Shown: positions 1 through 13,646 of the stretch, piece by piece | Layout of the letters: each line of letters begins with the position of its first letter | How positions within the stretch are numbered: the stretch's first letter is position 1 | Source: a virus | Taxonomy: Duplodnaviria; Heunggongvirae; Uroviricota; Caudoviricetes | Virus record (IMG/VR): IMGVR_UViG_2724679293_000014 | Location: 1 to 13,646 of that record | DNA: 13,646 nucleotides | Reading direction: 5' to 3' (one strand) | Position numbers and translations under genes: made by a program | The notes under the pieces: model-generated | Databases searched by the model: none | Told to the model about the DNA's origin: nothing | Seen by the model: the letters and a program-made list of their open reading frames with translations, nothing else

Positions 1-2044
<2,044 letters not shown>

Positions 2045-2070
<26 letters not shown>

Positions 2071-2590
2071 TCAGCAACCCCGGTATCAGTTCATCCAGCG
2101 CGGCTGCTTTGTTCATGGCTTTGATGATATCCCGTTTCAGGAAATCAACATGTCGGTTTTCCAGTTCCGGAAAACGCCGCTGCACCGACAGGGGGATCCC
2201 GTCGAGAATACTGGCAATTTCACCTGCGATCCGCGACAGCACGAAAGTACAGAATGCGGTTTCCACCACTTCAGCGGAGTCTCTGGCATTTTTCAGCTCC
2301 TGTGCGTCGGCCTGCGCACGCGTAAGTCGATGGCGTTCGTACTCAATAGTCCCTGGCTGGAGATCTGTCTCGCTGGCCTGCCGCAGTTCTTCAACTTCCC
2401 GGCGCAGCTTTTCGTTCTCAATTTCAGCATCCCTTTCGGCATACCATTTTATGACGGCGGCAGAGTCATAAAGCACCTCATTACCCTTGCCACCGCCTCG
2501 CAGAACGGGCATTCCCTGTTCCTGCCAGTTCTGAATGGTACGGATACTCGCACCGAAAATGTCAGCCAGCTGCTTTTTGTTGACTTCCAT
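2045..2590 (-). CDS. nu1: Terminase small subunit (lambda Nu1 family), 181 aa
   Basis: Track ORF 2045..2590; MEVNKKQLADIFGASIRTIQNWQEQGMPVLRGGGKGNEVLYDSAAVIKWYAERD... matches lambda Nu1 (winged-helix N-terminus) and sits immediately downstream of cosB. Confidence 0.95.
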
Positions 2591-2609
2591 TGTTCATTCC
2601 ACGGACAAA

Positions 2610-2800
2610 AACAGAGAAAGGAAACGACAGAGGCCAAAAAGCCCGTTTTCAGCACCTGTCGTTTCCTTTCTTTTCAGGGGGTGTTTTAAATAAAAACATT
2701 AAGTTACGAAGAAGAAGAACGGAAACGCCTTAAACCGGAAAATTTTCATAAATAGCGAAAACCCGCGAGGTCGCCGCCCCGTAACCTGTCGGATCGCCGG
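2610..2800 (-). other. cos: cos packaging site (cosB R1/R2/R3 sites plus IHF region, cosN, cosQ side)
   Basis: Reverse complement of 2590-2790 reproduces the lambda left-end sequence as remembered (GGGCGGCGACCTCGCGGGTTTTCGCTATTTATGAAAATTTTCCGGTTTAAGGCGTTTCCGTTC...). R-site-like repeats are at 2616-2630 (gaaaggaaacgacag), 2656-2670 (ctgtcgtttcctttc, inverted relative to the first) and 2718-2730 (gaacggaaacgcc). Confidence 0.85.
2768..2779 (-). other. cosN: cosN 12-nt cohesive-end sequence (GGGCGGCGACCT on the minus strand), joined to the phage right end ...GGTTACG
   Basis: Plus strand reads aggtcgccgccc at 2768-2779 followed by cgtaacctgtcggatcgccgg, which is the reverse complement of the lambda right-end/left-end junction. 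Confidence 0.85.
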
Positions 2801-2815
2801 AAAGGACCCACGAAA

Positions 2816-2832
2816 ATGATAATAATTATCAT
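2816..2832. promoter_or_regulatory. Perfect palindrome atgataat-a-attatcat, operator-like and Fur-box-like
   Basis: 8-bp arms are exact reverse complements around one central base; composition resembles GATAAT/ATTATC Fur hexamers. Function unknown. Confidence 0.3.
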
Positions 2833-2986
2833 CTACATGAGGTTTATCACGACATGTGTGTACGCCATCAAACCACGAGAAATAATCAATTATTACGCAG
2901 GTATCGTATTAATTGATCTGCATCAAATTAGCGTAAAAGCAACTTCAGATAATACAAATCAGCAACACTGAATACGGGGCAACATT

Positions 2987-3211
2987 ATGTCATCAAAGAA
3001 CAGAACCCGCAGAACAACAACCCGCAACATCCGATTTCCAAACCAGATAATTGAACAAATTAACATCGCTCTTGACCTGAAAGGTTCAGGTAATTTTTCA
3101 GCGTGGGTTATTGAAGCCTGCAGAAGAAGATTAATTAATGAAAAATATTCTCAATTTGTACCCAACAAAGACAAACACGACCAGAGCACCTGTTCAGACA
3201 GGTTTACTTAA
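2987..3211 (+). CDS. Small ribbon-helix-helix-like DNA-binding protein, 74 aa; possibly YnfO/YlcI-like prophage protein
   Basis: Track ORF with ATG start; TRNIRFPNQIIEQINIALDLKGSGNFSAWVIEACRRRL fits a strand-helix-turn-helix (Arc/CopG-like) pattern. An intrinsic terminator follows immediately. Family assignment is from pattern only. Confidence 0.55.
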   Translation: MSSKNRTRRTTTRNIRFPNQIIEQINIALDLKGSGNFSAWVIEACRRRLINEKYSQFVPNKDKHDQSTCSDRFT

Positions 3212-3230
3212 ACGACTTATATATGACACA

Positions 3231-3259
3231 AAAAGCGACCACTAAAGTCGCTTTTTCTT
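3231..3259. terminator. Bidirectional rho-independent terminator between two convergent small genes
   Basis: aaaagcgac-cactaaa-gtcgcttttt: GC stem with an A-tract before and a T-tract after, so it is usable from both strands. Confidence 0.6.
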
Positions 3260-3292
3260 ATGGTAACAGGCAATAACTCTCTCAGATATTTT

Positions 3293-3607
3293 TTAGCATT
3301 TTTTTGACCGCGCGTTTCCGGACGTATTCTGTTCTCCTGTCCCTTTATATCGTCGGAATACCCGCCGCTCTTCAAATCCCATTCCCAACTCAGAATGTAG
3401 TCTGTTGACCGCTTGTTTTATTTCGGTCAGGTTCACCGGTGAAACCGGAGTCCGGCGCGCCTTACGCAAACACTCTGCTCGTTTCTGTGCCGCCACTTTT
3501 CTTTTCTGGTCATCACTTAGCTGTACCATCACTTTTGCCCATCGTTCAGCTGCTCTCCGGTACAGTCCTTTTTTCTCCAGACATTCTGCCACGTGATCAT
3601 GTAGCAT
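3293..3607 (-). CDS. Small basic protein, 104 aa; putative PerC/Pch-family transcriptional regulator
   Basis: Track ORF; ATG at 3607 preceded by a strong Shine-Dalgarno (GGAGGT, about 6 nt spacing). The N-terminal motif HDHVAECLEKKGLYRRAAERWAKVM resembles what I recall of PerC/Pch proteins of pathogenic E. coli prophages; not verified. Confidence 0.6.
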   Translation of the reverse strand: MLHDHVAECLEKKGLYRRAAERWAKVMVQLSDDQKRKVAAQKRAECLRKARRTPVSPVNLTEIKQAVNRLHSELGMGFEERRVFRRYKGTGEQNTSGNARSKKC

Positions 3608-3642
3608 AAGTGACCTCCGATTATCTACAGACTGCCATCCTG

Positions 3643-3670
3643 AATTTACCTTCCCTTAATGAAATAACAA
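3643..3670 (-). promoter_or_regulatory. Candidate sigma70 promoter for the PerC-like gene (TTGTTA -16 nt- TAAATT)
   Basis: Minus-strand reading TTGTTATTTCATTAAGGGAAGGTAAATTCAGG lies about 35 nt upstream of the SD/ATG, with a T/G-rich tract further upstream. Confidence 0.35.
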
Positions 3671-4072
3671 TAAAAAACAAACCACGCAAAAACAATAAAA
3701 CAACACACAAAAAAAACTAAATAACAAACAAAAATAATCACCTTGTTTTATTATTTTTTGAGGGAGCAATTACTGAACAAAAAACGCTGACTATATACTC
3801 AAAACCAAACAACTATTCTGCCAATCAGGTATCATGGCAACACACGGAATTACCGTGTTTTTGCCTTCTCTGCCCATACAATACGGGCATATACTTCATT
3901 CTCTATTGTAATATTTCTATCCATGTGCCCCACTCCATTTACCTGTAAATAATATTCAAAATATTTATCACAGAAATCGTTTTTGGCCATGAACTGAGCA
4001 CACTATAAAGTCCGGAACTGACTCTTTGTTAAATTACCTTAACGTTACCAGTAACACCTTCATAACAAAATA

Positions 4073-4540
4073 TCACGGTATACACTGGGTACGGATATAT
4101 TCCTGTGCTCCTTCCAGTTGCTTCTGCATTGCCATCAGCCGTTCTCTGAGGATGAAATAATCCCGTTCAGCGGTGTCTGCCAGTCGGGGGCCGGTTGCAT
4201 TATCCACGCCGGAGGTGCCGGTGGCTTCACGCACGGTACCGGAGCAGGTGGCGTTGATCCGCAGGCGCTTACGACCAGCGGCAACATCAGCACGCAGAGT
4301 TTCATTTTCAGCTCTCGCATCGGCTAATTCCCTCGAGTATCTGGCATCAAGTGCAGCGACATCACGCTGGCGTATCTGCATATCAGTAATTGTCGCGTTC
4401 GCCAGCTCCAGCTCACTGGCTTTTTTATCGCGCTGCTCTTTGTAGATGATGGCGTGATCACGGTAATGATTCAGCCCCAGACTAAGCGCACCACAGGCCA
4501 CCAGCAGGACAATGATAACCACGCACAGAACACGGTTCAT
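4073..4540 (-). CDS. Rz: Rz i-spanin (inner-membrane spanin), about 155 aa
   Basis: Track ORF 4073..4597 begins at a TTG; the likely true start is the ATG at 4540 ([39 protein letters not shown]...), which aligns with lambda Rz (…[45 protein letters not shown]…). Confidence 0.9.
   Translation of the reverse strand: [155 protein letters not shown]
4135..4320 (-). CDS. Rz1: Rz1 o-spanin lipoprotein embedded in the +1 frame of Rz, 61 aa
   Basis: MRELKMKLCVLMLPLVVSACGSTPPAPVPCVKPPAPPAWIMQPAPDWQTPLNGIISSSENG: lipobox VSAC, proline-rich, matching the lambda Rz1 pattern (…CVKPPPPPAWIMQPPPDWQTPLNGIISPSERG). Confidence 0.85.
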   Translation of the reverse strand: MRELKMKLCVLMLPLVVSACGSTPPAPVPCVKPPAPPAWIMQPAPDWQTPLNGIISSSENG

Positions 4541-4541
4541 A

Positions 4542-4655
4542 TCACCACCAACGGATTGCCCAGACCAGAACAGCAATGGCCACAATACGAATGGCAAAAG
4601 CTGCCGCTCTTGTTAAATCCAGACTGGCTGGCGTCTCCACTTCAATGCCTTTCAT
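4542..4655 (-). CDS. Hypothetical 37-aa single-pass membrane peptide, stop codon 2 nt before the Rz ATG (TGATATG)
   Basis: Hand translation: MKGIEVETPASLDLTRAAAFAIRIVAIAVLVWAIRWW; SD-like GAGGT about 10 nt upstream; below the track length cutoff. Speculative. Confidence 0.3.
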   Translation of the reverse strand: MKGIEVETPASLDLTRAAAFAIRIVAIAVLVWAIRWW

Positions 4656-4753
4656 AATGGACAACCTCAGAAAGAATCTTTTATACTTCCTCACAGGGAA
4701 AGTACCTCCCTACCCATAATTTCTCCCTTGCCTTGCTCAAGGTCAGAAAACAC

Positions 4754-4790
4754 AAAACCCCGCTTGCTGCCAACAAACGGGGTTTTTACT
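4754..4790. terminator. Intrinsic terminator-like hairpin between endolysin and Rz
   Basis: aaaaccccg-cttgctgccaacaaa-cggggttttt; a T-run follows on the plus strand and TTTTGTGTTTTC follows on the minus strand. Confidence 0.5.
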
Positions 4791-4875
4791 TTTATTCACT
4801 TAGGTTTTACCAGTTTTCAGGATTTCGTGTTATCCCCCCGCGTTGGCCAACGTCATTTTTCAGGAAAATATTCTG

Positions 4876-5409
4876 CTATCTGTCGATGTCCCAGCACGCC
4901 AGCGCGCTCTCCTGGTCACGCCGTGAGACCTGACCGTAGCAATTATTTGAACGGATACGGCAGTCTCTGCCACCGTCCTTAATCCACCAGCGAATCGCCT
5001 CACAGGCACCTTTTCGATCGCCTGCATTAATTCGTTTATAAAACGTCGACGGGAAGCACTTACCGGGGCCAATGTTGTACGGACAGAATGACGCGATCCC
5101 CGCTTTCTGGGGTTCGGTCAGCGGCACCCGGATGTTTTTCTCCACCCATGCCAGCGCCTTGTCACGTTCGATGGCATTAACCCGGTCGCATTTTTCCTTT
5201 GACAGCTTCATGCCAGGAATAACAGGCTTACCATCCACCAGAATGGCACCACGGCAGATGGTCCAGATCCCCGCACCATCACGGTATGCCGTGGTGTGGT
5301 TACCTTCCTTTTCATCCAGAAACTGGTCGAGGATTTCAGGCGCAGAAGCACCTGCACCAATCAGCGCCAGAACGGCAGCCGACAGGCCGTATTTTATTTT
5401 TTCGTGCAT
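4876..5409 (-). CDS. R: SAR endolysin (phage lysozyme, T4-lysozyme/GH24-like, phage 21 R type), 177 aa
   Basis: N-terminal Gly/Ala-rich weakly hydrophobic segment GLSAAVLALIGAGASA (signal-arrest-release type) followed by the catalytic region EGNHTTAYRDGAGIWTICRG, analogous to phage 21 R (…[20 protein letters not shown]). Confidence 0.9.
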   Translation of the reverse strand: MHEKIKYGLSAAVLALIGAGASAPEILDQFLDEKEGNHTTAYRDGAGIWTICRGAILVDGKPVIPGMKLSKEKCDRVNAIERDKALAWVEKNIRVPLTEPQKAGIASFCPYNIGPGKCFPSTFYKRINAGDRKGACEAIRWWIKDGGRDCRIRSNNCYGQVSRRDQESALACWDIDR

Positions 5410-5419
5410 GGGGATTTAT

Positions 5420-5460
5420 CGATTTCTAATCCCTTGATATGTTAGGTATATAATCCAACA
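5420..5460 (+). promoter_or_regulatory. Candidate promoter for the plus-strand moron ORF (perfect -10 TATAAT at about 5449-5454)
   Basis: cccttgatatgttaggtatataat; AT-rich, but the -35 element is weak or mis-spaced. Confidence 0.3.
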
Positions 5461-5526
5461 CTCATGGTCGCTCTCATAAACATATCCCTTGAGACGCAGC
5501 AGATTACAACAAATGAAGCCATATAA

Positions 5527-5841
5527 ATGAACAGTAAAGAAAGTTTGCGCAGAAGATTTTTACAACTAATGACAGAAAACGTTAAATCAGAGTTACTTCT
5601 TCTGATGGCAGATAATAACGAAGCAACAAGCAGCATTCTTGCAGACCCTTACGGTAAGATCTCACATAAAACGCTGGATATTATTACCACAACATTAACA
5701 CCGCTGATGCTTCAACGGCTGAAACATAATATCAACGCATGGGTTAATGAAGAATTAAGTCCTCCCTGCTTATGGGATTCTCGTTACGCATGTCAGCAAA
5801 AAATGCGAATTTTCAACTTACTATCACCAAAGCTCAGGTAG
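5527..5841 (+). CDS. Hypothetical protein, 104 aa, convergent moron inserted between holin and endolysin
   Basis: ATG-initiated track ORF with protein-like composition (MNSKESLRRRFLQLMTENVKSELLLLMADNNEATSSILADPYGKISHKTL...) in an AT-rich island; an 8-bp-stem hairpin follows at 5847-5876. No recognisable family. Confidence 0.45.
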   Translation: MNSKESLRRRFLQLMTENVKSELLLLMADNNEATSSILADPYGKISHKTLDIITTTLTPLMLQRLKHNINAWVNEELSPPCLWDSRYACQQKMRIFNLLSPKLR

Positions 5842-6096
5842 CCATAAAATCCTGCCCTTCATGGCATACAGGATTTCAATGGAATCACAATGACCAACTC
5901 TTGCACAGCTGTATCCCTGACTCCCCGACAACTCAGATTTTCAGTATCTGCTGCTATCTAAAGAGAAAGCGCACAAATGCAAGGGTCTTTCATCACGTCC
6001 TGTTATTGATTGCCTGTGACCTTTTCTCACCTCATGGAACGTTTTTTCAGTTAGAAATATTCATTTTACAACCAGTTCGTATTGTTTATTCATCGA

Positions 6097-6303
6097 CTAC
6101 TCTCCCCGCGCCACCTTACGACGGTCCTCTCTGATTTTGAAATACAGGTTAGTCAGATACGTCAGCAGGCCAAACAGCAGACTTCCCAGCACACCTATTG
6201 CCACCCACTGGGACGGAGAGACTTTGTCCAGCAGCTGCAGTAACCAGTATCCCGTCCCCACCGCTGACGTGGTGTATGACACACCTGTTGTGATTTTTTC
6301 CAT
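6097..6303 (-). CDS. S: Pinholin (phage 21 S21-type class II holin), 68 aa
   Basis: [68 protein letters not shown] is near-identical in pattern to S21 ([68 protein letters not shown]) as recalled. Confidence 0.9.
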
Positions 6304-6558
6304 CTGATGTATGTCTCCGTCACCGCCGACAGAAAATGAAAGTAAAGAAAAACAAAAAAACCGCCAGTGTCACCCACTGACGGCCAACTCCGGGAGCCGT
6401 GATTATGGCATTCAGGCTCTGCTAAAAATGCCAGATAACATTCCGGCCTCCCCTGATTCAGGTTATAAATGACACAATATCTTGACAACACCCGTCACTG
6501 TCTGTCAGAAAATATACCGCCAGGCATAAGTATCATGTGAAATCCAACTATCCTTCTG

Positions 6559-6601
6559 AGCCAGCACCTCTCCACCGAAAGTCAGTGCTGGCTGTTTTTT
6601 T
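6559..6601 (+). terminator. Plus-strand rho-independent terminator (module 1)
   Basis: agccagcac-(loop)-gtgctggct followed by gttttttt; no A-tract upstream, so it is oriented for the plus strand only. Confidence 0.5.
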
Positions 6602-6708
6602 CCTTAATAAAGCATCTGTAACTGAAACAATCCGCATATTGATAATATATTGACAGGCATCATTGCTGTCTGTGAAAAATAAGTCTCTACAAACATATAA
6701 GGCCTTTT

Positions 6709-6749
6709 AGCCAGCGTCTTCTTTCAGGTCAGTCGCTGGCTCTTTTTTT
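6709..6749 (+). terminator. Plus-strand rho-independent terminator (module 2), abutting the nanS-p stop codon
   Basis: agccagcg-(loop)-cgctggct followed by cttttttt; paralogous to the hairpin at 6559-6601. Confidence 0.5.
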
Positions 6750-6750
6750 A

Positions 6751-8601
6751 TTATGCTGCCGGTGCATTTATCTCCAGCACCAGACTTTCTATCTCAACGC
6801 CATACGCTGCATTTTTTGTAACATCCGTCAGCGTCAGCGCATTCAGTCCCAGTGTCAGACTGTCTTTTATAACCTGGAATGCCGGGCCAGCCACTCCATT
6901 CAGTTTCGGAGTAACCGTGGCACTGCCGGCGGTGAACACCAGCTCCAGCGTCTGCCAGTCGTTACCGTAATCGCCGAACTCCCCCAGCTTCGTGTTTCCG
7001 GCTTTCCTGTGATGCATCAGATTCACTCTGCCGTCAGTGGTCTGAGTGAAGTACGACATCAGGAACGGATTACCGGTACCCGTCATCGCCACACCATCAG
7101 GAACGGGAGCATCCGTATACAGATAAATCCCCAGCCCGAACTGATTGTTGGTCAGTGCGCCTGACAGGCGGAACTTACAGGTCAGTCTGCCGCCCTGTGT
7201 CAGCAGGGTAATTGCGTCATCCACCGGATGCGTCAGGGACCAGGTTTTATTGCTCTGCTTGGCGATCTTAAATACACCACCCGACAACTGAATTCCGCCA
7301 TCCTTAATGCTCCAGCCCTGCGCAGCAGCCTCTCCGGCTGCCGGCAGCAGGGAGATTGTGCGAACGGACGTATCTGCAGACGGACCCGATGGCGTGTTGC
7401 CGCCGGGCGAGGGTTTGATTTCCGGTGCCTTACCACTGATGAAGGCTGAGGTGCGCCCGGCTGCGTTCAGAATAGCGGTTGCCAGACGATCCGGAATAAT
7501 GCTCCTGCGCGCCCATGAACTGAAATGTGTCGGGCGGTTTGATGATACCTGGTTTCCATTCGTTCTCGATGCCGCACCGTAATATCCTGATGCCGGAATA
7601 TCCGGATCTTCTGCCGGCGCGTTAGTGGCGGTATTGACACCGTTACCGTCTGTCATGAAGGACACAAAATAAACGCCCTCACTCTCCCTGTTTTTATACC
7701 CGCCGTACACGGTGTCGTACTGGGTAGCGTATGTATTTTTCCAGTAATACGTCGTGTCACCACAAATCCACGGCACATCTGCAGCACTGCCACCATGGCA
7801 CTGCGCGTTAAACACGGAGAGGTCAGCACGAAACTGTGTCAGCATGGCTGTAAACAGCGCAGGTTGCTGTGCGTGGGTGGCGGCGCTCATGTCAAACTCT
7901 CCCTGCATCCAGCACACCGCCAGCAACACATTTTTCGGGTTCTTCTGTAATGCAGCTTTAGTGCGCGCAATCAGGTCCTGATATAACGGTTTACCCACAC
8001 CCCAGCGTGCCGAATCCTGGCTGGCCCCCGTGTCCGCACTGAATGTCCCCTCCGCGCCCTGGGTGAATGCCGAACCACCACGACAGCATGGTACCAGCAG
8101 GATCCCCGCGTTATTCGGGATATACGGAAGCAGTTTTTTGGCAATATGTAAGCCCTGGCCGACACAGCCGTACTGCCCTTTGCTCAGGTCTGCCTTCGGA
8201 TGATTCAGCGTACTCATATCCTGCACATCATGCAGGCAGTGGTCGGCCGGAATAATATCGTTATATCTGCAGGCAGCCCCACCCGGCGTCACTGTACTGC
8301 GGCGCGCCAGCTGTTTAATGCGCGGATCCGGAGCATCGTATGAATCCGGCAGCGGAAGCCCTTCACCGTAAGCCATGGCATTGGACTGCCCGGCCAGTAC
8401 GATGACGTAGTACCAATCCGGCTCAGTTGCACCACTGACCACCACATCACCTTCTGCTGTAATCGCCTGCATCAGGGTATAAGGGGTTATGGCCACCGGA
8501 CTACCAAACGGCTGCCAGCCCTCTTTCAGTTTGTGTGTCAGCTTTTCCGCAAGGTCTGACGGCGACGCCGCCCTGACAACATCATAATGTTTAAATGTCA
8601 T
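6751..8601 (-). CDS. nanS-p: Prophage-encoded sialate O-acetylesterase (NanS-p-like; N-terminal DUF1737 plus SASA esterase domain), 616 aa
   Basis: Track ORF with strong SD (GGGAGGAATA-ATG); N-terminus MTFKHYDVVRAASPSDLAEKLTHKLKEGWQPFGSPV and esterase motif VIVLAGQSNAMAYGEG are typical of NanS-p proteins found between Q/stx and the lysis genes of EHEC lambdoid prophages. Confidence 0.85.
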   Translation of the reverse strand: MTFKHYDVVRAASPSDLAEKLTHKLKEGWQPFGSPVAITPYTLMQAITAEGDVVVSGATEPDWYYVIVLAGQSNAMAYGEGLPLPDSYDAPDPRIKQLARRSTVTPGGAACRYNDIIPADHCLHDVQDMSTLNHPKADLSKGQYGCVGQGLHIAKKLLPYIPNNAGILLVPCCRGGSAFTQGAEGTFSADTGASQDSARWGVGKPLYQDLIARTKAALQKNPKNVLLAVCWMQGEFDMSAATHAQQPALFTAMLTQFRADLSVFNAQCHGGSAADVPWICGDTTYYWKNTYATQYDTVYGGYKNRESEGVYFVSFMTDGNGVNTATNAPAEDPDIPASGYYGAASRTNGNQVSSNRPTHFSSWARRSIIPDRLATAILNAAGRTSAFISGKAPEIKPSPGGNTPSGPSADTSVRTISLLPAAGEAAAQGWSIKDGGIQLSGGVFKIAKQSNKTWSLTHPVDDAITLLTQGGRLTCKFRLSGALTNNQFGLGIYLYTDAPVPDGVAMTGTGNPFLMSYFTQTTDGRVNLMHHRKAGNTKLGEFGDYGNDWQTLELVFTAGSATVTPKLNGVAGPAFQVIKDSLTLGLNALTLTDVTKNAAYGVEIESLVLEINAPAA

Positions 8602-8644
8602 TATTCCTCCCGGCCGGGATAGTGTATTAAATCAGATATGGAGT

Positions 8645-8689
8645 GGGCTGTAGTCCGGAAGCCTGAATGACACACGGGGACTACAGCCC
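8645..8689 (-). promoter_or_regulatory. Strong hairpin (12-bp perfect stem, about 21-nt loop) in the 5' leader of nanS-p
   Basis: gggctgtagtcc ... ggactacagccc; no adjacent U-run on either strand, so it is not a canonical terminator. Confidence 0.4.
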
Positions 8690-8784
8690 AAGAAATGAAG
8701 AAGGCCACGCAGTTGCGCAGCCTGATAAACCCTGGTTAAAATCCACACGATAACAACACAACAATATCAGTATCTCATGCTATT

Positions 8785-8846
8785 GCCCGAACCCATTCGG
8801 GCATTTTTTACCCATAAAAAATGCCCCTCCGGAGAGGGGCATTTTT
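8785..8846. terminator. Terminator cluster: plus-strand hairpin with T-run (8785-8809) and a bidirectional terminator (8816-8846)
   Basis: gcccgaacccattcgggc+atttttt; aaaaaatgcccctc-cgga-gaggggcattttt with A/T tracts on both flanks. On the minus strand the second would stop late transcription ahead of nanS-p unless antiterminated. Confidence 0.6.
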
Positions 8847-9043
8847 GCATGCACATTCTTTTTCTTGCATGGTGCCGGGTGCCTCCCGGTGAATTCAGTA
8901 TCAGCACCTGAATCCGCGATTATCACATATACCTACTTGCTGATTGCCCCTCCGCACAGGGGGATTCACCATGCAGTAGTATTTTTAATAAACAGCAAAT
9001 AAAAAAATCAAGCATTATGCAGGCTGTTTCTTTTTATCACCGG

Positions 9044-9175
9044 CTACAGCAATACCACAATGCCGCAGACCAGCACCCCATCCGCCAGCACCGACATGAT
9101 TCTGCTGGTGAAATCCACCATCACCACCAGAAACAGCAGGAGTGCAGCCACAGCCAGGCGCAGTTTTACCGTCAC
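9044..9175 (-). CDS. Hypothetical 43-aa two-helix membrane peptide, GTG start overlapping the TGA of the TerB-like frame (GTGA)
   Basis: Hand translation VTVKLRLAVAALLLFLVVMVDFTSRIMSVLADGVLVCGIVVLL. Two other frames are also open here (track ORF 9015..9302), so coding status is uncertain. Confidence 0.25.
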   Translation of the reverse strand: MTVKLRLAVAALLLFLVVMVDFTSRIMSVLADGVLVCGIVVLL

Positions 9176-9607
9176 AGGTGATTCTCCAGACGAAGACCCA
9201 GAACACCGGCAATCTCTTCCAGCACCTTGCGCTCTTCCGGCTCAATTTCGCCGTCTGCCTCCGCAATGGCCACCGCCACATCCAGCACATCTTCCGCTTC
9301 ACGCGTATCGTGTTTCACATCCTCGATCTCACGTAACGCCGCACGACGACCAGTTTTAAAGTTCGTATCCAGCTGACCGATAATGGTTGCGCTAATCGCA
9401 TTAATTTCTGACGTAAACGCGGACAGCGCAGGCTGATTACGCAGTACCTGTTCGATCTTCGCTTTCTAGGAAGCCTCACATTCACCATCTGCACAGGCCA
9501 CCAGGTAGGCAGCATTAATAACCGCCTGTGCCAGATCGCGTTTCTCAAACTTTCCTTTTTCCGGTTAACGTGACACACCAATAACTCTTGTCGAAAAAGC
9601 CAGCAAG
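9172..9607 (-). pseudogene. TerB-family (tellurite-resistance TerB-like fold) gene remnant, disrupted by an in-frame amber codon and at least one frameshift, with no usable start
   Basis: Minus-strand hand translation: ...GFFDKSYWCVTLTGK (frame 1), then a frame change within ggaaaaagg, then PEKGKFEKRDLAQAVINAAYLVACADGECEAS-TAG-KAKIEQVLRNQPALSAF...VAVAIAEADGEIEPEERKVLEEIAGVLGLRLENHL. This aligns in order with E. coli TerB as recalled (MSFFDK...FMQGTVAVCARIAVASDG...IAVAKSDGNFDDDEKSAVREIARSLGF). The amber is at plus coordinates 9466-9468. Confidence 0.55.
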
Positions 9608-9667
9608 CTGAAAGACCGGTATTCACAACCACCAGCGCGTTTACTGTACTGGCGTGATTTCAGTCAT

Positions 9668-9692
9668 AAAAAAACCCGCCTGGCGACGGGTG
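9668..9692 (-). terminator. tR'-like intrinsic terminator ending a roughly 60-nt pR' leader transcript
   Basis: Minus strand ACACCCGTCGCCAGGCGGGTTTTTTT, about 40-60 nt downstream of the predicted pR' start. Confidence 0.5.
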
Positions 9693-9738
9693 TAAAAAAT
9701 CTTCTAACGTCAGGCATAAAACGCCCATCGTTAGGGCA

Positions 9739-9766
9739 AATTTACCACAGATTCGGGAAAAATCAA
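9739..9766 (-). promoter_or_regulatory. Late promoter pR' with Q-utilisation region (-35 TTGATT, -10 TAAATT, then AACGATGGG pause-type sequence)
   Basis: Minus strand TTGATTTTTCCCGAATCTGTGGTAAATTTGCCCTAACGATGGGCG compares with lambda pR' TTGACTTATTGAATAAAATTGGGTAAATTTGACTCAACGATGGG from memory; it lies immediately downstream of the Q stop codon. Confidence 0.65.
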
Positions 9767-9771
9767 CAAAG

Positions 9772-10593
9772 CTATCTGGTCACCTTTTTCAGTTGTTGTT
9801 CTGCCCATGCTTCTTCAATATCAAACTGCACCACCAGCGTATCGTAAAAACGTTTAACTGTTTTTTTCCATGTATCAAGAGATATGGCATCGGTTACATT
9901 ACATATGGCATTAAATGCCTCCGTTGAAGGTAATCTTTCATAGCCACGACCACCACAACGCTGGCAGTCTCTGATAACAGGCATACCACGTTTTACCGAC
10001 TCTTCACGATGAATGGCAACACCGCGCCCACGACAATCTTTACAGGCGGTGGAAACCTCCCCCTTCCCTCCACACTCCGGACAGGCAACTTTTACCACCT
10101 CCCTGACTTTTTTCCATTCCTCCCAGTAAGACGGATACACGCCTTTTGTGCACTTTGCCCACACTGGCGGCTTACCATCCGGATACTGGATCTTGTTTGT
10201 AAAAACCTCGCTTTCAATAAATTTTTTTCCGTGACAACAGGGGCACTGTTTTTTGCTCGCCGCGCTACGGGCATAATCTTCAAACGCATACGAAGCCATA
10301 ATACGCATCACTGCCGGTTTTATTTCTGCCGGGAGTTTTCTTAACGCCGCCACGCGATCACACCGACTGAGTGCATATTCTGTCAGCAATTCTGTTGCCC
10401 GCTCTCTGTCATTCATACTAATGCCCATTTTCCCAAGGAACGCAGAAAACCCCATCTCAGCCCAATTCTGTGTCATGCCCTGCGCGGCCATCACATCAGT
10501 GATACTCAGCGTATCTTTCGACGTTGAGGCCGATGCATCAGTCAGGCCGAGGGATTTTGGGGAGTAGTATTTCGGTAAATCTTCCAGTTTCAT
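9772..10593 (-). CDS. Q: Late-gene antiterminator Q (lambda Q family), 273 aa, with an enlarged Cys-rich zinc-binding region
   Basis: KYYSPKS, TDVMAA and YDTLVVQFDIEE motifs match lambda Q (KFHSPKS, TDVMAA, YDALVVQCHKEE). About 65 extra residues carry four CxxC motifs (CPCC, CPEC, CKDC, CQRC). The ATG overlaps the rusA stop as ATGA. Confidence 0.9.
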   Translation of the reverse strand: MKLEDLPKYYSPKSLGLTDASASTSKDTLSITDVMAAQGMTQNWAEMGFSAFLGKMGISMNDRERATELLTEYALSRCDRVAALRKLPAEIKPAVMRIMASYAFEDYARSAASKKQCPCCHGKKFIESEVFTNKIQYPDGKPPVWAKCTKGVYPSYWEEWKKVREVVKVACPECGGKGEVSTACKDCRGRGVAIHREESVKRGMPVIRDCQRCGGRGYERLPSTEAFNAICNVTDAISLDTWKKTVKRFYDTLVVQFDIEEAWAEQQLKKVTR

Positions 10594-10964
10594 TTTTTGA
10601 CCTGCCCTTCAAGCATTATGGGGTAAATCTTCACCCCCAGACGTCCACCAGATACTGGCTGACCACGAACGATATTGATTTCATCAAACTGCTCATCGTC
10701 CATTAACACTCCCGCATGCGTCAGCGCATCCAGCGGTGCTTTCAGGATATTGTCCAGGTCGCGACGACGCTTATCCGGTGGCTCTGCAATCACCTTTATC
10801 GCCAGCCTTCCGGACAGGATTAATTTCAGCCGCTGCTGGCGAACAATAAGCGCCACAGCCCGGCGATAACGCTTTCCCTCCTCCGAGATAAAATATGTGC
10901 TGCCACGACGTCGCCAGTAGGTGTTCACCGTTGGCGGGTAAGGTAAAACCAAATCTATGAGCAT
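10590..10964 (-). CDS. rusA: Holliday junction resolvase RusA (crossover junction endodeoxyribonuclease), 124 aa
   Basis: MLIDLVLPYPPTVNTYWRRRG...DLDNILKAPLDALTHAGVLMDDEQFDEINIVRG is the characteristic RusA pattern; good SD (AGAGGTGA); typical position just upstream of Q. Confidence 0.9.
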   Translation of the reverse strand: MLIDLVLPYPPTVNTYWRRRGSTYFISEEGKRYRRAVALIVRQQRLKLILSGRLAIKVIAEPPDKRRRDLDNILKAPLDALTHAGVLMDDEQFDEINIVRGQPVSGGRLGVKIYPIMLEGQVKK

Positions 10965-10976
10965 CAGTCACCTCTT

Positions 10977-12026
10977 TTACCCAAGCACGCCAGTTGCAAA
11001 GGCGTGATCAAGAAAACGAAAAATTAAATCAACCTGAGAGCCATGCTTTTCTTCGAACGCCAGCGGATCCGCATGAAGCTCGTTGTGATGCTCCCGACAC
11101 AGCGGTAGCGTGAAAATATCGTGAGATTTTGTCCCCATTCCGCCCTGACCATGACCAATCAGGTGATGGGGATCGTCGGCTGGCTTACCACAACACGCAC
11201 ACGGCTGAGTCTTCACCCAGCGTGTGTATTTCTCGTTAACCCAGCGGCGACGTTTAGGTCGTTTCATGAAAGATTCCGGAGACTCAGGATCAACGGCAAT
11301 GCTGACCACCGTCTTTTCCTGTGGTGGGTTCTGTTGCTGGTGGGCGTGAGGCAACGGTGCAAGATTTTTTGTGCGCTGTTTCAATATGCTGGTGGCGGTC
11401 TGCTCTCCCGGTACGATGTCGCTTTCGCGGTACACCGAGCAGATTTTTTCCGCTGGTAATCCCAGCGAGCGACGTAATACCGCTTCCGGTAGCGCGTCCG
11501 CCAGCTGATTGCGGACCGCCCACCAGGATAATTCAGCCAGAGATAATTCACGCTCCTGCGTACCGCTTATTGCGTGACCGATGACGTCAATCATCCATGC
11601 TGACAGGTTTTGATGAGCAAGTTGCTCGAGTGATTCGGATGTCTGGTCACGCAGCTGGTTGTCGCAGTGCCAGCACAACACCATTGCGCCGGTACCATAT
11701 CGGTGAATAACGGTTTCGCTGTGATGATAATCGCCGTGTGGCCACTGGCAGGATTTAATATGGCGCAACAGCCAGTCAGACAATGCACCAGCACCACCAG
11801 CAGCACGAATTACCCGTGCGTTACTGAAAAACGGCAGCAATGTTTTGTCTTCCACCAGCGGCTGGCGAACGGCAGGAACGACCCCGGACGGCAGATTACG
11901 CATGCTTTTCGGTTCCGGCTCCACCAGTAACCGGGTATTGTGGAATACCGGCATGGATTCACGGCCCGGCTTAACGATCACCAGCCCGAGTTCCGGTACC
12001 AGAACAGGTCGAAGTAATACCCGCAC
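10977..12026 (-). CDS. YdfU-like prophage protein (DUF968-type) with Cys/His clusters and a C-terminal HNH-type nuclease motif, 349 aa
   Basis: GTG start with strong SD (GGAGGTAAC-GTG). C-terminal CACCGKPADDPHHLIGHGQGGMGTKSHDIFTLPLCREHHNELHAD and an N-terminal CxxC...HxxH cluster. Same position and length as ydfU of the K-12 Qin prophage as I recall it. Confidence 0.75.
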   Translation of the reverse strand: MRVLLRPVLVPELGLVIVKPGRESMPVFHNTRLLVEPEPKSMRNLPSGVVPAVRQPLVEDKTLLPFFSNARVIRAAGGAGALSDWLLRHIKSCQWPHGDYHHSETVIHRYGTGAMVLCWHCDNQLRDQTSESLEQLAHQNLSAWMIDVIGHAISGTQERELSLAELSWWAVRNQLADALPEAVLRRSLGLPAEKICSVYRESDIVPGEQTATSILKQRTKNLAPLPHAHQQQNPPQEKTVVSIAVDPESPESFMKRPKRRRWVNEKYTRWVKTQPCACCGKPADDPHHLIGHGQGGMGTKSHDIFTLPLCREHHNELHADPLAFEEKHGSQVDLIFRFLDHAFATGVLG

Positions 12027-12027
12027 G

Positions 12028-12306
12028 TTACCTCCAGATGCGTTGCTGGAATGTGCGGGACGGACGCGGTGGGCGTTCGGAGTAAGGAAGCCTGACGGAG
12101 ATTATCCAGTGACGGTAGTCGAGGCTAAGGGCTTTTTTAACCTCGTATCCGCGCCTGCGGTAACACTGAATTATCCATTCAGCCTGCTCTTCAGTGCATG
12201 GTGGATGCTGGAACCAGTCCGATTTGAATGCATGAAAACGCCGTCCGCACCTGCTGGCAAAGACGGCAGAATCATCAGAATTGTGTAATTTGGTATCGTG
12301 CGCCAT
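12028..12306 (-). CDS. Hypothetical small protein (Rem-position gene), about 92 aa from the ATG at 12306
   Basis: The track ORF starts at a TTG (12417) with no SD; the internal ATG at 12306 has an AGAAGAGA-type SD. Its TAA stop lies inside the SD of the downstream YdfU-like gene, suggesting coupling. Confidence 0.45.
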   Translation of the reverse strand: MAHDTKLHNSDDSAVFASRCGRRFHAFKSDWFQHPPCTEEQAEWIIQCYRRRGYEVKKALSLDYRHWIISVRLPYSERPPRPSRTFQQRIWR

Positions 12307-12571
12307 CGGTTGTCTCTTCTGGCGCAGCAGGTGCCAGTTGTTCAGGCTGGCGTATAAAGTATAAATAAACTGGTTCCAGTGTAAAGCCCCTACATTAATG
12401 GAATAAAAGTCAAACAACAGATTGCTGGGATAAACACAACGCTTATTATTAAAAGCGATTAGATAAATTAAATTTTAATGTTATGCAATTTTACCAGATC
12501 ACCATAACATCTCGTTTGAAACCACCGAAACAACAACCATATCAATATTGATTATGTTAAAGTGAGTAAAT

Positions 12572-12658
12572 ATGGAAAACAACAAATCTGCACATTACGC
12601 TCCTTTTTTATCTGTGATACTTTTTGTTTTATGCTGTGTGTGGGCATTATTTTTATAA
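12572..12658 (+). CDS. Candidate 28-aa hydrophobic peptide (MENNKSAHYAPFLSVILFVLCCVWALFL), convergent on hokD
   Basis: ATG with weak SD (GTGAG) in an AT-rich intergenic region; single predicted transmembrane helix; below the track cutoff. Speculative. Confidence 0.2.
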   Translation: MENNKSAHYAPFLSVILFVLCCVWALFL

Positions 12659-12667
12659 AAATATTTA

Positions 12668-12696
12668 CAGATAAAATAAACCCGCCGAAGCGGGTT
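12668..12696 (-). terminator. Rho-independent terminator ending the relB-relE-hokD operon
   Basis: Minus strand AACCCGC-ttcg-GCGGGTT followed by TATTTTATC. Confidence 0.55.
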
Positions 12697-12764
12697 AAGC
12701 GCGGGTGCGTTGAGGATGCCTGACACATCAGAGGCGGCGAGGGATTTCTCCCTCGCCAAGTCTC

Positions 12765-12920
12765 TTACTCCTCAGGTTCGTAGACTGTGAAGACAGCGAC
12801 CTCCGTCTGGCCGGTTCGGATTCGTACCTCGCAGAGGTCTTTCCTCGTTACCAGTGTCGTCACTATGACGGTTAAACAGATGACGATCAGGGCGATTAAC
12901 ATCGCCTTTTGCTGCTTCAT
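12765..12920 (-). CDS. hokD: Hok-family type I toxin HokD (RelF), 51 aa
   Basis: Hand translation MKQQKAMLIALIVICLTVIVTTLVTRKDLCEVRIRTGQTEVAVFTVYEPEE, essentially the K-12 HokD sequence as recalled. Not in the track because it is shorter than the cutoff. Confidence 0.9.
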   Translation of the reverse strand: MKQQKAMLIALIVICLTVIVTTLVTRKDLCEVRIRTGQTEVAVFTVYEPEE

Positions 12921-12991
12921 AGCCTGCTTCCCCTGTCAACGCAAAGCAGAAGTGTCACCTTCGGTGCGAAACAGAGATGTCATGCTTTGGT

Positions 12992-13279
12992 TCAGAGAAT
13001 GCGTTTGACCGCCTCGCTATATACTTCCGAGCGTTCTCTTTTCCCAACAGAAATCACGAAAACGACAACTTTCTCGTCTATAACCTGGTATACAAGGCGA
13101 TAGCCTGAAGACCGGAGCTTAATCTTGTAACAATCAGGCATACCACGGAGCTTGTTTGCTTCAATCCGGGGTGACTCAAGTACTTCAACCAGCTTCTTTT
13201 TCAACTGTTCACGTACCGTCGAGCCCAGCTTTCGCCATTCCTTTAGTGCCCGCTCGTCAAAATCCAGAAAATACGCCAT
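12992..13279 (-). CDS. relE: RelE mRNA interferase toxin, 95 aa
   Basis: MAYFLDFDERALKEWRKLGSTVREQLKKKLVEVLESPRIEANKLRGMPDCYKIKLRSSGYRLVYQVIDEKVVVFVISVGKRERSEVYSEAVKRIL matches E. coli RelE. Confidence 0.95.
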   Translation of the reverse strand: MAYFLDFDERALKEWRKLGSTVREQLKKKLVEVLESPRIEANKLRGMPDCYKIKLRSSGYRLVYQVIDEKVVVFVISVGKRERSEVYSEAVKRIL

Positions 13280-13518
13280 CAGAGTTCATCCAGCGTCACA
13301 CGTACTGGCTTAGGATTACGAAGCCGTTCTTTCACTATCTCCACAAGTTCAGCATCTTCATCACTCAGGAGTGTCTGTTTGAACGGCAAGCGTTCATTGT
13401 CAGCGATATACTCGAGCATGAGACGAAGCGCTTCAGAAGGAGTTACACCCATTTTTTCAAGCGCGGCGTAAGAACGCGCTTTAAGTTCATCGTCAATACG
13501 CAGGTTAATGCTACCCAT
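13279..13518 (-). CDS. relB: RelB antitoxin, 79 aa
   Basis: MGSINLRIDDELKARSYAALEKMGVTPSEALRLMLEYIADNERLPFKQTLLSDEDAELVEIVKERLRNPKPVRVTLDEL matches E. coli RelB; its stop overlaps the relE start. Confidence 0.95.
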   Translation of the reverse strand: MGSINLRIDDELKARSYAALEKMGVTPSEALRLMLEYIADNERLPFKQTLLSDEDAELVEIVKERLRNPKPVRVTLDEL

Positions 13519-13529
13519 GTCTTACACCT

Positions 13530-13580
13530 CTTGTAATTACAAATGTCATTACAAGTATCGCACTACAACATGCTTAGGGC
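13530..13580 (-). promoter_or_regulatory. relO: relBE promoter and operator (palindromic TTGTAAT repeats)
   Basis: cttgtaattacaaatgtcattacaag palindrome at 13530-13555 immediately upstream of the relB ATG; candidate -10 GATACT and -35 TTGCCC on the minus strand. Confidence 0.7.
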
Positions 13581-13646
13581 AAGTCACGAAGGAAGTCAGA
13601 AAGTAGTCGTAAGAACGGTGATCACTGTCCGCTTTGTGCCAGGAGC

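Follow-up and report, generated by a model that had tools for sequence, protein, structure and literature searches.

The pchABC genes are described as the EHEC counterparts of EPEC PerC and as genes without which LEE expression and adherence are not complete (Iyoda and Watanabe, 2004, cited in PMC4456613). The group-1 pch genes (pchA, pchB, and pchC) differ from one another at only three nucleotides (positions 16, 172, and 183; PMC5931665), and pchA is the Sakai copy that has been used in functional studies (PMC4764244). Fukui et al. (2016) found that Pch activates LEE1 only under silencing by H-NS/StpA/Hha/YdgT, and that it lowers H-NS occupancy at LEE1 both in vivo and in a reconstituted complex without binding to H-NS itself; they concluded that competitive DNA binding by Pch relaxes the silencing complex (PMC4764244). 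In EPEC, dependence of LEE expression on PerC is confined to specific conditions, whereas EHEC relies on Pch for it (PMC4764244). Reported inputs to pchA include LrhA and Lrp/butyrate/LeuO (PMC4456613), with sigma-S/NtrC as a further one, and its translation is reportedly blocked by pairing of the SD with an anti-SD inside the coding region, and freed by the sRNA DicF (reviews PMC7769764, PMC7873438).

We analysed a stretch of 13,646 nucleotides (positions 1 to 13,646 of IMG/VR virus record IMGVR_UViG_2724679293_000014), referred to below at its full length as the window, which contains the late region of a lambda-like prophage in reverse orientation, with the late genes on the minus strand. 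The features discussed here are:

145-2070, minus strand: large terminase
2045-2590, minus strand: Nu1-type small terminase
2766-2779: cosN core cgaggtcgccgccc, which in reverse complement reads as the left cohesive end of lambda, GGGCGGCGACCTCG
2812-2830: Fur-box-like sequence GAAAATGATAATAATTATC; cosQ lies on one side of it and the DUF3950 gene on the other, with the ATG of that gene 157 bp away
2885-2917: inverted repeat ATCAATTATTACG-N7-CGTATTAATTGAT between the Fur box and the DUF3950 ORF, with 13-nt arms that are 92% complementary; candidate operator
2987-3211, plus strand: gene of the DUF3950 / YlcI-YnfO type, 74 aa (residues 1-49, conserved domain; residues 50-74, variable tail specific to the pch-carrying version)
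3230-3256, both strands: hairpin AAAAAGCGAC-N7-GTCGCTTTTT in the 81-bp gap between the two ORFs, preceded by an A5 run and followed by a T5 run
3293-3607, minus strand: pch, assigned as a pchA allele (group 1, PerC family, 104 aa) by PF06069 and by identity to Sakai PchA
3503-3510, minus strand: ACCAGAAA in the pch mRNA, a perfect complement to the first 8 nt of the sRNA DicF (UUUCUGGU); candidate site
3608-3849, minus strand: upstream region of pch, putative promoter and leader, AT-rich (28-30% GC over 240 bp) and 99.5% identical to the region upstream of Sakai pchA
3614-3618, minus strand: SD of pch, GGAGG (CCTCC on the plus strand), 6 nt before the ATG
3850-3990, minus strand: 46-aa ORF between Rz and pch, matching phrog_2157 at full length (E 2.7e-37); phage-conserved
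4073-4597, minus strand: Rz/Rz1
4876-5409, minus strand: lysozyme
6097-6303, minus strand: holin
6751-8601, minus strand: esterase
9772-10593, minus strand: Q antiterminator

We take GGGCGGCGACCTCG to be the lambda cohesive end; next to the cosN core, the bases at 2780-2811 (the cosQ side) align with the final bases of the lambda right end. To the left of cosN are Nu1 and the terminase, and to its right are the DUF3950 ORF and pch, followed by Rz/Rz1, lysozyme, and holin; in the lambda reference record, bor occupies the corresponding interval between Rz and cos. The sequence-only reading of this DNA had described a convergent pair of ORFs of 74 and 104 aa in the slot between the lysis genes and cos where lambda carries bor, and both the coordinates of the ORFs and their placement between Rz and cosN hold. 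The 46-aa phrog_2157 ORF carries no annotation in the RefSeq loci examined, and PADLOC returned no meaningful defence-system match. Taken as a whole, the locus is very probably the accessory slot at the right end of a lambda-like prophage from attaching-and-effacing E. coli, containing two independent genes.

The best-matching genome, that of the bovine strain 7_33_46A, is 100% identical to the window over positions 1-12934 and contains the block of cos, DUF3950 gene, and pch in two copies; the last ~700 bp of the window (12935-13646) are not continued there, so the window comes from a different mosaic or strain. Elsewhere in the window, downstream of the Q gene, there are Rfam matches above the gathering score to the anti-GcvB sRNA AgvB (96.5 bits, 8748-8809, plus strand) and to STnc100 (146.2 bits, 8810-9000, minus strand). 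The stretch between lysozyme and holin (5420-6058) is unlike that of the O157:H7 Anguil locus, where a YdfR-family gene sits; it includes an ORF at 5527-5841 (plus strand) that matches phrog_1853 (E 3.5e-47), and the same arrangement is found in Sakai Sp4 and in strain 7_33_46A.

The 104-aa protein matches the Pfam PerC family (PF06069) with residues 1-89 on profile positions 1-89 of 90 (E 3.8e-44; 149.3 bits, cut-off 22.6), and it also matches phrog_994 (E 1.4e-45). All 104 residues are identical to those of PchA (ECs_1091) of E. coli O157:H7 Sakai, annotated as “transcriptional regulator PchA” of prophage Sp4, and the exact protein sequence is named “PchABC family transcriptional regulator” in public sources. 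At the DNA level, only 5 of the 961 positions between 3150 and 4110 differ from Sakai (99.5% identity), none of them within the coding sequence, and the same CDS is found, identical, in three other loci. Since the CDS has no mismatch to Sakai pchA, we conclude on grounds of sequence identity that the 104-aa ORF is a pchA allele. It also resembles the group-1 genes in its length of 104 aa and in its carriage by a lambda-like prophage: the flanks are terminase, cos, Rz/Rz1, lysozyme, holin, and Q, and Sakai pchA lies in “prophage Sp4, lambda-like phage”.

The description of this ORF as PerC-like is borne out by the full-length profile match. The HMM search that had been proposed as a check gave significant matches to PerC for one protein and to DUF3950 for the other, the absence of profile matches, along with a lack of detectable expression in lysogens, being what had been named as evidence against the reading. 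The interpretation of both proteins as putative regulators, made by pattern, is supported, and no observation speaks against the identity of either gene. The finding is correct, and both pchA in the lambda “bor slot” and a cos-adjacent gene of the ylcI/ynfO type were already known. A single-sequence AF2 model of PchA (pLDDT 51, too low to support a fold search) predicted four helices and a disordered basic tail; a weak match to the NCBIfam ANR family (E 0.046) was below the cut-off, and PDB sequence and profile searches with both proteins gave nothing usable.

The 74-aa protein belongs to a family with matches in three collections: PF13132 (DUF3950; E 1.3e-17, 63.8 bits, cut-off 25), NCBIfam NF041551 (YlcI/YnfO; 34.5 bits, cut-off 30), and phrog_949 (E 6.4e-31). 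Using K-12 and lambda, we defined the expected position of such a gene ourselves, as next to cos and divergent from the small terminase gene. Alignment of Nu1, cos, and the ORF with the Qin nohA-ynfO region and the lambda right end showed that the gene in the window adjoins cos and diverges from the small terminase gene. In K-12 Qin, the same ORF is ynfO, located next to cos and divergent from nohA; DLP12 also carries a DUF3950 gene (ylcI), according to the literature; and phage lambda (NC_001416) contains a 64-aa DUF3950 ORF at 48109-48303 (complement; 2710-2904, minus strand, in our locus L004), ~200 bp from its right end. Residues 1-49 are near-invariant across the family and the tails past residue 49 are unrelated; in addition, homology between the window and lambda ends at ~3121-3133. 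Together these put a mosaic junction, where backbone gives way to cargo, within the 3′ end of the DUF3950 ORF, at codon 49-50. The cargo consists of p79, p78, and bor in lambda, of ydfO, gnsB, ynfN, and cspI in Qin, and of pch and the 46-aa phrog_2157 ORF in the window.

An ORF that lies within 210 bp of cosN, has a weak SD, carries no annotation in the lambda reference record, and is almost invariant over its first 15 codons, synonymous sites included, could be no protein gene at all, its conservation reflecting DNA-level constraint on the cos region (packaging or termination signals). However, over the 49 conserved codons the window differs from lambda at 12 codons synonymously and at 4 non-synonymously (dN/dS 0.067, dS 0.68), divergent homologues at 33-51% identity keep the residue pattern, and Pfam, NCBIfam, and PHROG families exist. 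We regard a non-coding stretch as extremely improbable, with the dN/dS ruling out an artefact of cos conservation. Judged by these substitution patterns, the DUF3950 ORF is a real protein gene under strong purifying selection, conserved at the protein level, and neither of the two ORFs is a mere product of chance: both are real genes (149.3 and 63.8 bits with Pfam; dN/dS).

DUF3950 makes up a small family, with 189 clusters (50% identity) in a set of 1.84 billion representatives, and a literature search on YlcI, YnfO, and DUF3950 found no functional study. A contig search for diverse DUF3950 loci returned mostly near-identical sequences of the lambda type. In assemblies under labels such as Streptomyces, Cohnella, Pseudomonas, and Pedobacter (loci L013-L047), most matches lie ~200 bp from the ends of contigs of 3.5 kb or 48.4 kb. 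Three of these contigs were checked (L014, L015, and L016) and are 100% identical to the lambda right end; by that identity, they are lambda control DNA left in public assemblies, and many of the ~3.5-kb ENA contigs from which the homologue list was drawn probably share this origin.

The 10-11 bp stem of the hairpin in the 81-bp gap forms on either strand, with a predicted energy of -12.3 kcal/mol on the plus strand (z -3.2; 1 of 200 shuffles) and a z of -2.0 for the same stem on the minus strand. The hairpin shows the pattern of a bidirectional terminator (A run, GC-containing stem, T run), with a short GC core of 5-6 bp, and is conserved at the Sakai pchA locus. It was not listed by the consensus terminator scan, supposedly because the T run was counted into the stem. 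From its sequence, the hairpin is likely to be a bidirectional intrinsic terminator common to both convergent genes, which agrees, as a prediction, with the sequence-only reading that the two ORFs converge on one such element. In the lysogen it would probably end both transcripts, so that pch transcription would be kept out of cos and the terminase genes, and DUF3950 transcription would be stopped from running antisense into pch.

The two genes are adjacent and convergent and have this hairpin in common; moreover, the variable C-terminal tail of the DUF3950 protein travels with pch, the exact 74-aa protein being present on ~1000 contigs and identical in all four pch loci examined. This could mean that they form one functional module, in which a ribbon-helix-helix-like protein represses or partners PchA, as a regulator/anti-regulator or toxin-antitoxin-like pair. 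Their distribution among 5426 complete E. coli genomes speaks against it: the conserved 147 bp of DUF3950 N-terminal DNA occur at 9013 places in 3804 genomes, and group-1 pch at 1877 places in 673 genomes (median three copies per positive genome; at least 99% identity in 687 of 688 records), so that the former is roughly fivefold commoner by number of places. Lambda and Qin, furthermore, have the DUF3950 gene adjoining cos but no pch there. In Sakai Sp4, IS629 joins exactly at what is position 3131 of the window, codon 49 of the DUF3950 ORF, and codons 1-48 are removed, leaving the variable tail alone beside pchA; yet this pchA is the very copy of the functional studies (PMC4764244). The co-travel of the tail with pch is explained by the mosaic junction at codon 49-50. 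A two-gene module is thus largely refuted by the distribution and by the IS629-truncated neighbour in Sakai, and we consider it very unlikely: pch and the DUF3950 gene are independent neighbours and not a functional pair. Among 50,697 deposited phage records, a tblastn search with PchA matched a single one, which is a 1.5-kb fragment whose host was an O157 strain; isolated-phage collections therefore contain hardly any pch-carrying prophages, although the gene is present in 12% of complete E. coli genomes.

The 74-aa protein had been described as RHH-like, and RHH/DUF3950 profiles had been proposed for checking it; it matches DUF3950 (PF13132) but no RHH (ribbon-helix-helix) family by sequence or profile (no RHH Pfam family at E <= 1) and has no PDB match. 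A Pfam scan of ten divergent DUF3950 relatives gave no bridge to RHH families (RHH_6 appeared at E 0.092 in one divergent member only), and the protein matches the HicB-like phrog_497 weakly (E 0.0099). The AF2 model, which is of the monomer only (23-sequence alignment, core pLDDT ~85), has an extended N-terminal segment and helices at residues 19-32 and 34-55 with G-S-G-N-F-S between them, and in relatives at 33-51% identity, I-R-F, an E in helix A, and N-F-S-A-W-V-x-E-A are retained in that order. On this evidence a ribbon-helix-helix fold is weakly supported, likely but unproven, and the gene is predicted probably to encode a small dimeric RHH DNA-binding protein. It belongs to the conserved lambdoid backbone beside cos and is read away from cos, on the strand antisense to late transcription.

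Between cos and this gene, the Fur-box-like sequence at 2812-2830 matches the consensus at 17 of 19 positions (two mismatches), with 0.01 such sites expected per window, and aligns with the K-12 nohA (-233) site. Chen et al. (2007; PMC2189734) rank the nohA and nohB sites with the strongest Fur clusters predicted for the genome and assigned both to nohA/nohB; for nohA, a gel shift that followed in vivo selection gave confirmation. In the window, cos separates the box from the nohA-type gene, and the divergent DUF3950 ORF begins 157 bp downstream of the box, which makes either gene a possible target. The consensus promoter scan found no sigma-70-like site on either strand near 2812-2830, where only poor hexamers could be seen by eye, and no promoter for the DUF3950 gene; a box overlapping the promoter of a regulated gene, as at Fur-regulated promoters, was thus not seen here. 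The inverted repeat at 2885-2917, between the box and the ORF, is conserved in lambda and Qin. The DUF3950 gene may be under Fur control through this box. In the wider version of this idea, it would be a Fur-controlled, iron-responsive RHH regulator located beside cos in lambda and in 70% of complete E. coli genomes, and the nohA/nohB Fur site would really serve the divergent gene of the ylcI/ynfO type. The right DNA end enters the cell first in lambda infection, and since the gene is ~200 bp from that end, its product could also act very early in infection. We put this forward as a speculation that is unlikely to be right. The DUF3950 gene is the unexplored part of the locus: it is conserved, lies beside cos even in lambda, and is adjoined by one of the strongest Fur boxes of E. 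coli.

The GGAGG at 3614-3618 agrees with the strong SD that had been noted for the 104-aa ORF. Folding in silico at four segment lengths left this SD mostly base-paired, with P mostly ~0.8-0.95 for most bases and much lower for one or two. The 8-nt candidate site at 3503-3510 falls within a longer predicted duplex with DicF nt 1-24 (-23.2 kcal/mol, with the DicF sequence from K-12); duplex predictions were unrealistically long when unrestricted. Blocking the candidate site in silico did not free the SD, which is consistent with the DicF model and does not discriminate. By these predictions, the window copy of pch appears to keep the sequences relevant to DicF/anti-SD control: GGAGG, a predicted paired SD, and the 8-nt seed complement. 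Further upstream, the only sigma-70-like match of the consensus promoter scan is a weak one (3840..3812, minus strand), in the AT-rich region at 3608-3849, whose low GC is the composition that H-NS favours.

The pch gene is on the same strand as, and downstream of, Q, holin, lysozyme, and Rz, and the consensus terminator scan listed no terminator-like site on the minus strand from Rz to pch. Terminators are ignored by Q-modified polymerase in lambda. Given that pch follows the late genes in the same direction, antiterminated late transcription would, on induction, also read it in the sense direction, besides transcription from its own promoter. In strain PA20, SOS induction raised pchC ~8-fold and pchB >3-fold (P = 0.09), with no rise in pchA (PMC5931665), a pattern that late read-through of pch fits. 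In Sakai Sp4 (17131-21376 in our locus L003), the block of pchA, Rz, lysozyme, and holin is inverted relative to Q and the terminase and bounded by IS629; this inversion may be the cause of pchA, unlike pchC, lacking SOS induction in the published RNA-seq.

The same gene order, free of terminator-like sites, and the same rises of pchC and pchB would suit a copy that is silent cargo in the lysogen and relevant only as a late-expressed gene on induction, and the proposal that the locus is expressed in lysogeny would then not apply to this copy. The 465-bp region upstream of pch, however, is 99.5% identical to that of Sakai pchA, which is reportedly expressed in uninduced cultures and regulated there by LrhA, Lrp/butyrate, and sigma-S/NtrC, and we give silent carriage only the slimmest chance. 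Our preferred reading is that pch would be expressed in the lysogen from its own AT-rich promoter region, tied by published work to the host signals LrhA, Lrp/butyrate, and sigma-S/NtrC, with translation held back by pairing of the ribosome binding site with the coding region until DicF relieves it. For a protein identical to that of the window, activation of LEE1/ler through relief of H-NS silencing has been shown (PMC4764244, PMC5931665). PchA is a small basic protein; by extension, the window copy would bind the LEE1 promoter silenced by H-NS/StpA/Hha, as well as further AT-rich virulence loci, where displacement of H-NS would turn on ler and the type III secretion regulon. The window holds an intact copy of the master switch for EHEC/EPEC-type attachment (pchA to ler to LEE type III secretion), and this marks the E. 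coli that hosts it as attaching-and-effacing or of Shiga-toxin lineage. It is an example of host virulence rewired by prophage cargo genes that is textbook for the field, so that our analysis adds annotation rather than a discovery.

Compared with known systems, the DUF3950 protein may be set beside the ribbon-helix-helix DNA-binding proteins (Arc/MetJ/CopG), whose fold it may have, and has YlcI (DLP12), YnfO (Qin), and the 64-aa ORF of lambda as counterparts. The latter three share its domain, lie beside cos in the same place and direction, diverge from Nu1/nohA, and have the same upstream Fur box and inverted repeat, but their C-terminal tails are unrelated to that of the window from residue 50, where the mosaic junction to the downstream cargo lies. 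The lambda bor gene (with p78 and p79) occupies the same slot as pch, and these too are accessory genes, dispensable for lytic growth and with their own expression signals (PMC7067206); bor, however, encodes an outer-membrane lipoprotein and is antisense to late transcription, whereas pch encodes a regulator and lies in the sense direction. PerC of the EPEC plasmid pEAF, the founder of PF06069, is of the same family as PchA, and both activate the LEE1/ler promoter (PMC4764244), but PerC is encoded on a plasmid, where its gene forms one operon with perA and perB (perABC), whereas the pch of the window is a stand-alone prophage cargo gene. PchA, PchB, and PchC of Sakai Sp4, Sp11, and Sp14 are like the pch of the window in being multi-copy and borne by lambdoid prophages; protein and coding DNA of the window copy are identical to those of Sakai pchA, with the same upstream region and terminator hairpin. 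Sakai Sp4 differs in having its pchA-lysis block inverted and an IS629 that cuts the DUF3950 neighbour; in contrast, the late region of the window is unrearranged, with Q, the lysis genes, pch, cos, and the terminase on one strand and the DUF3950 neighbour intact.
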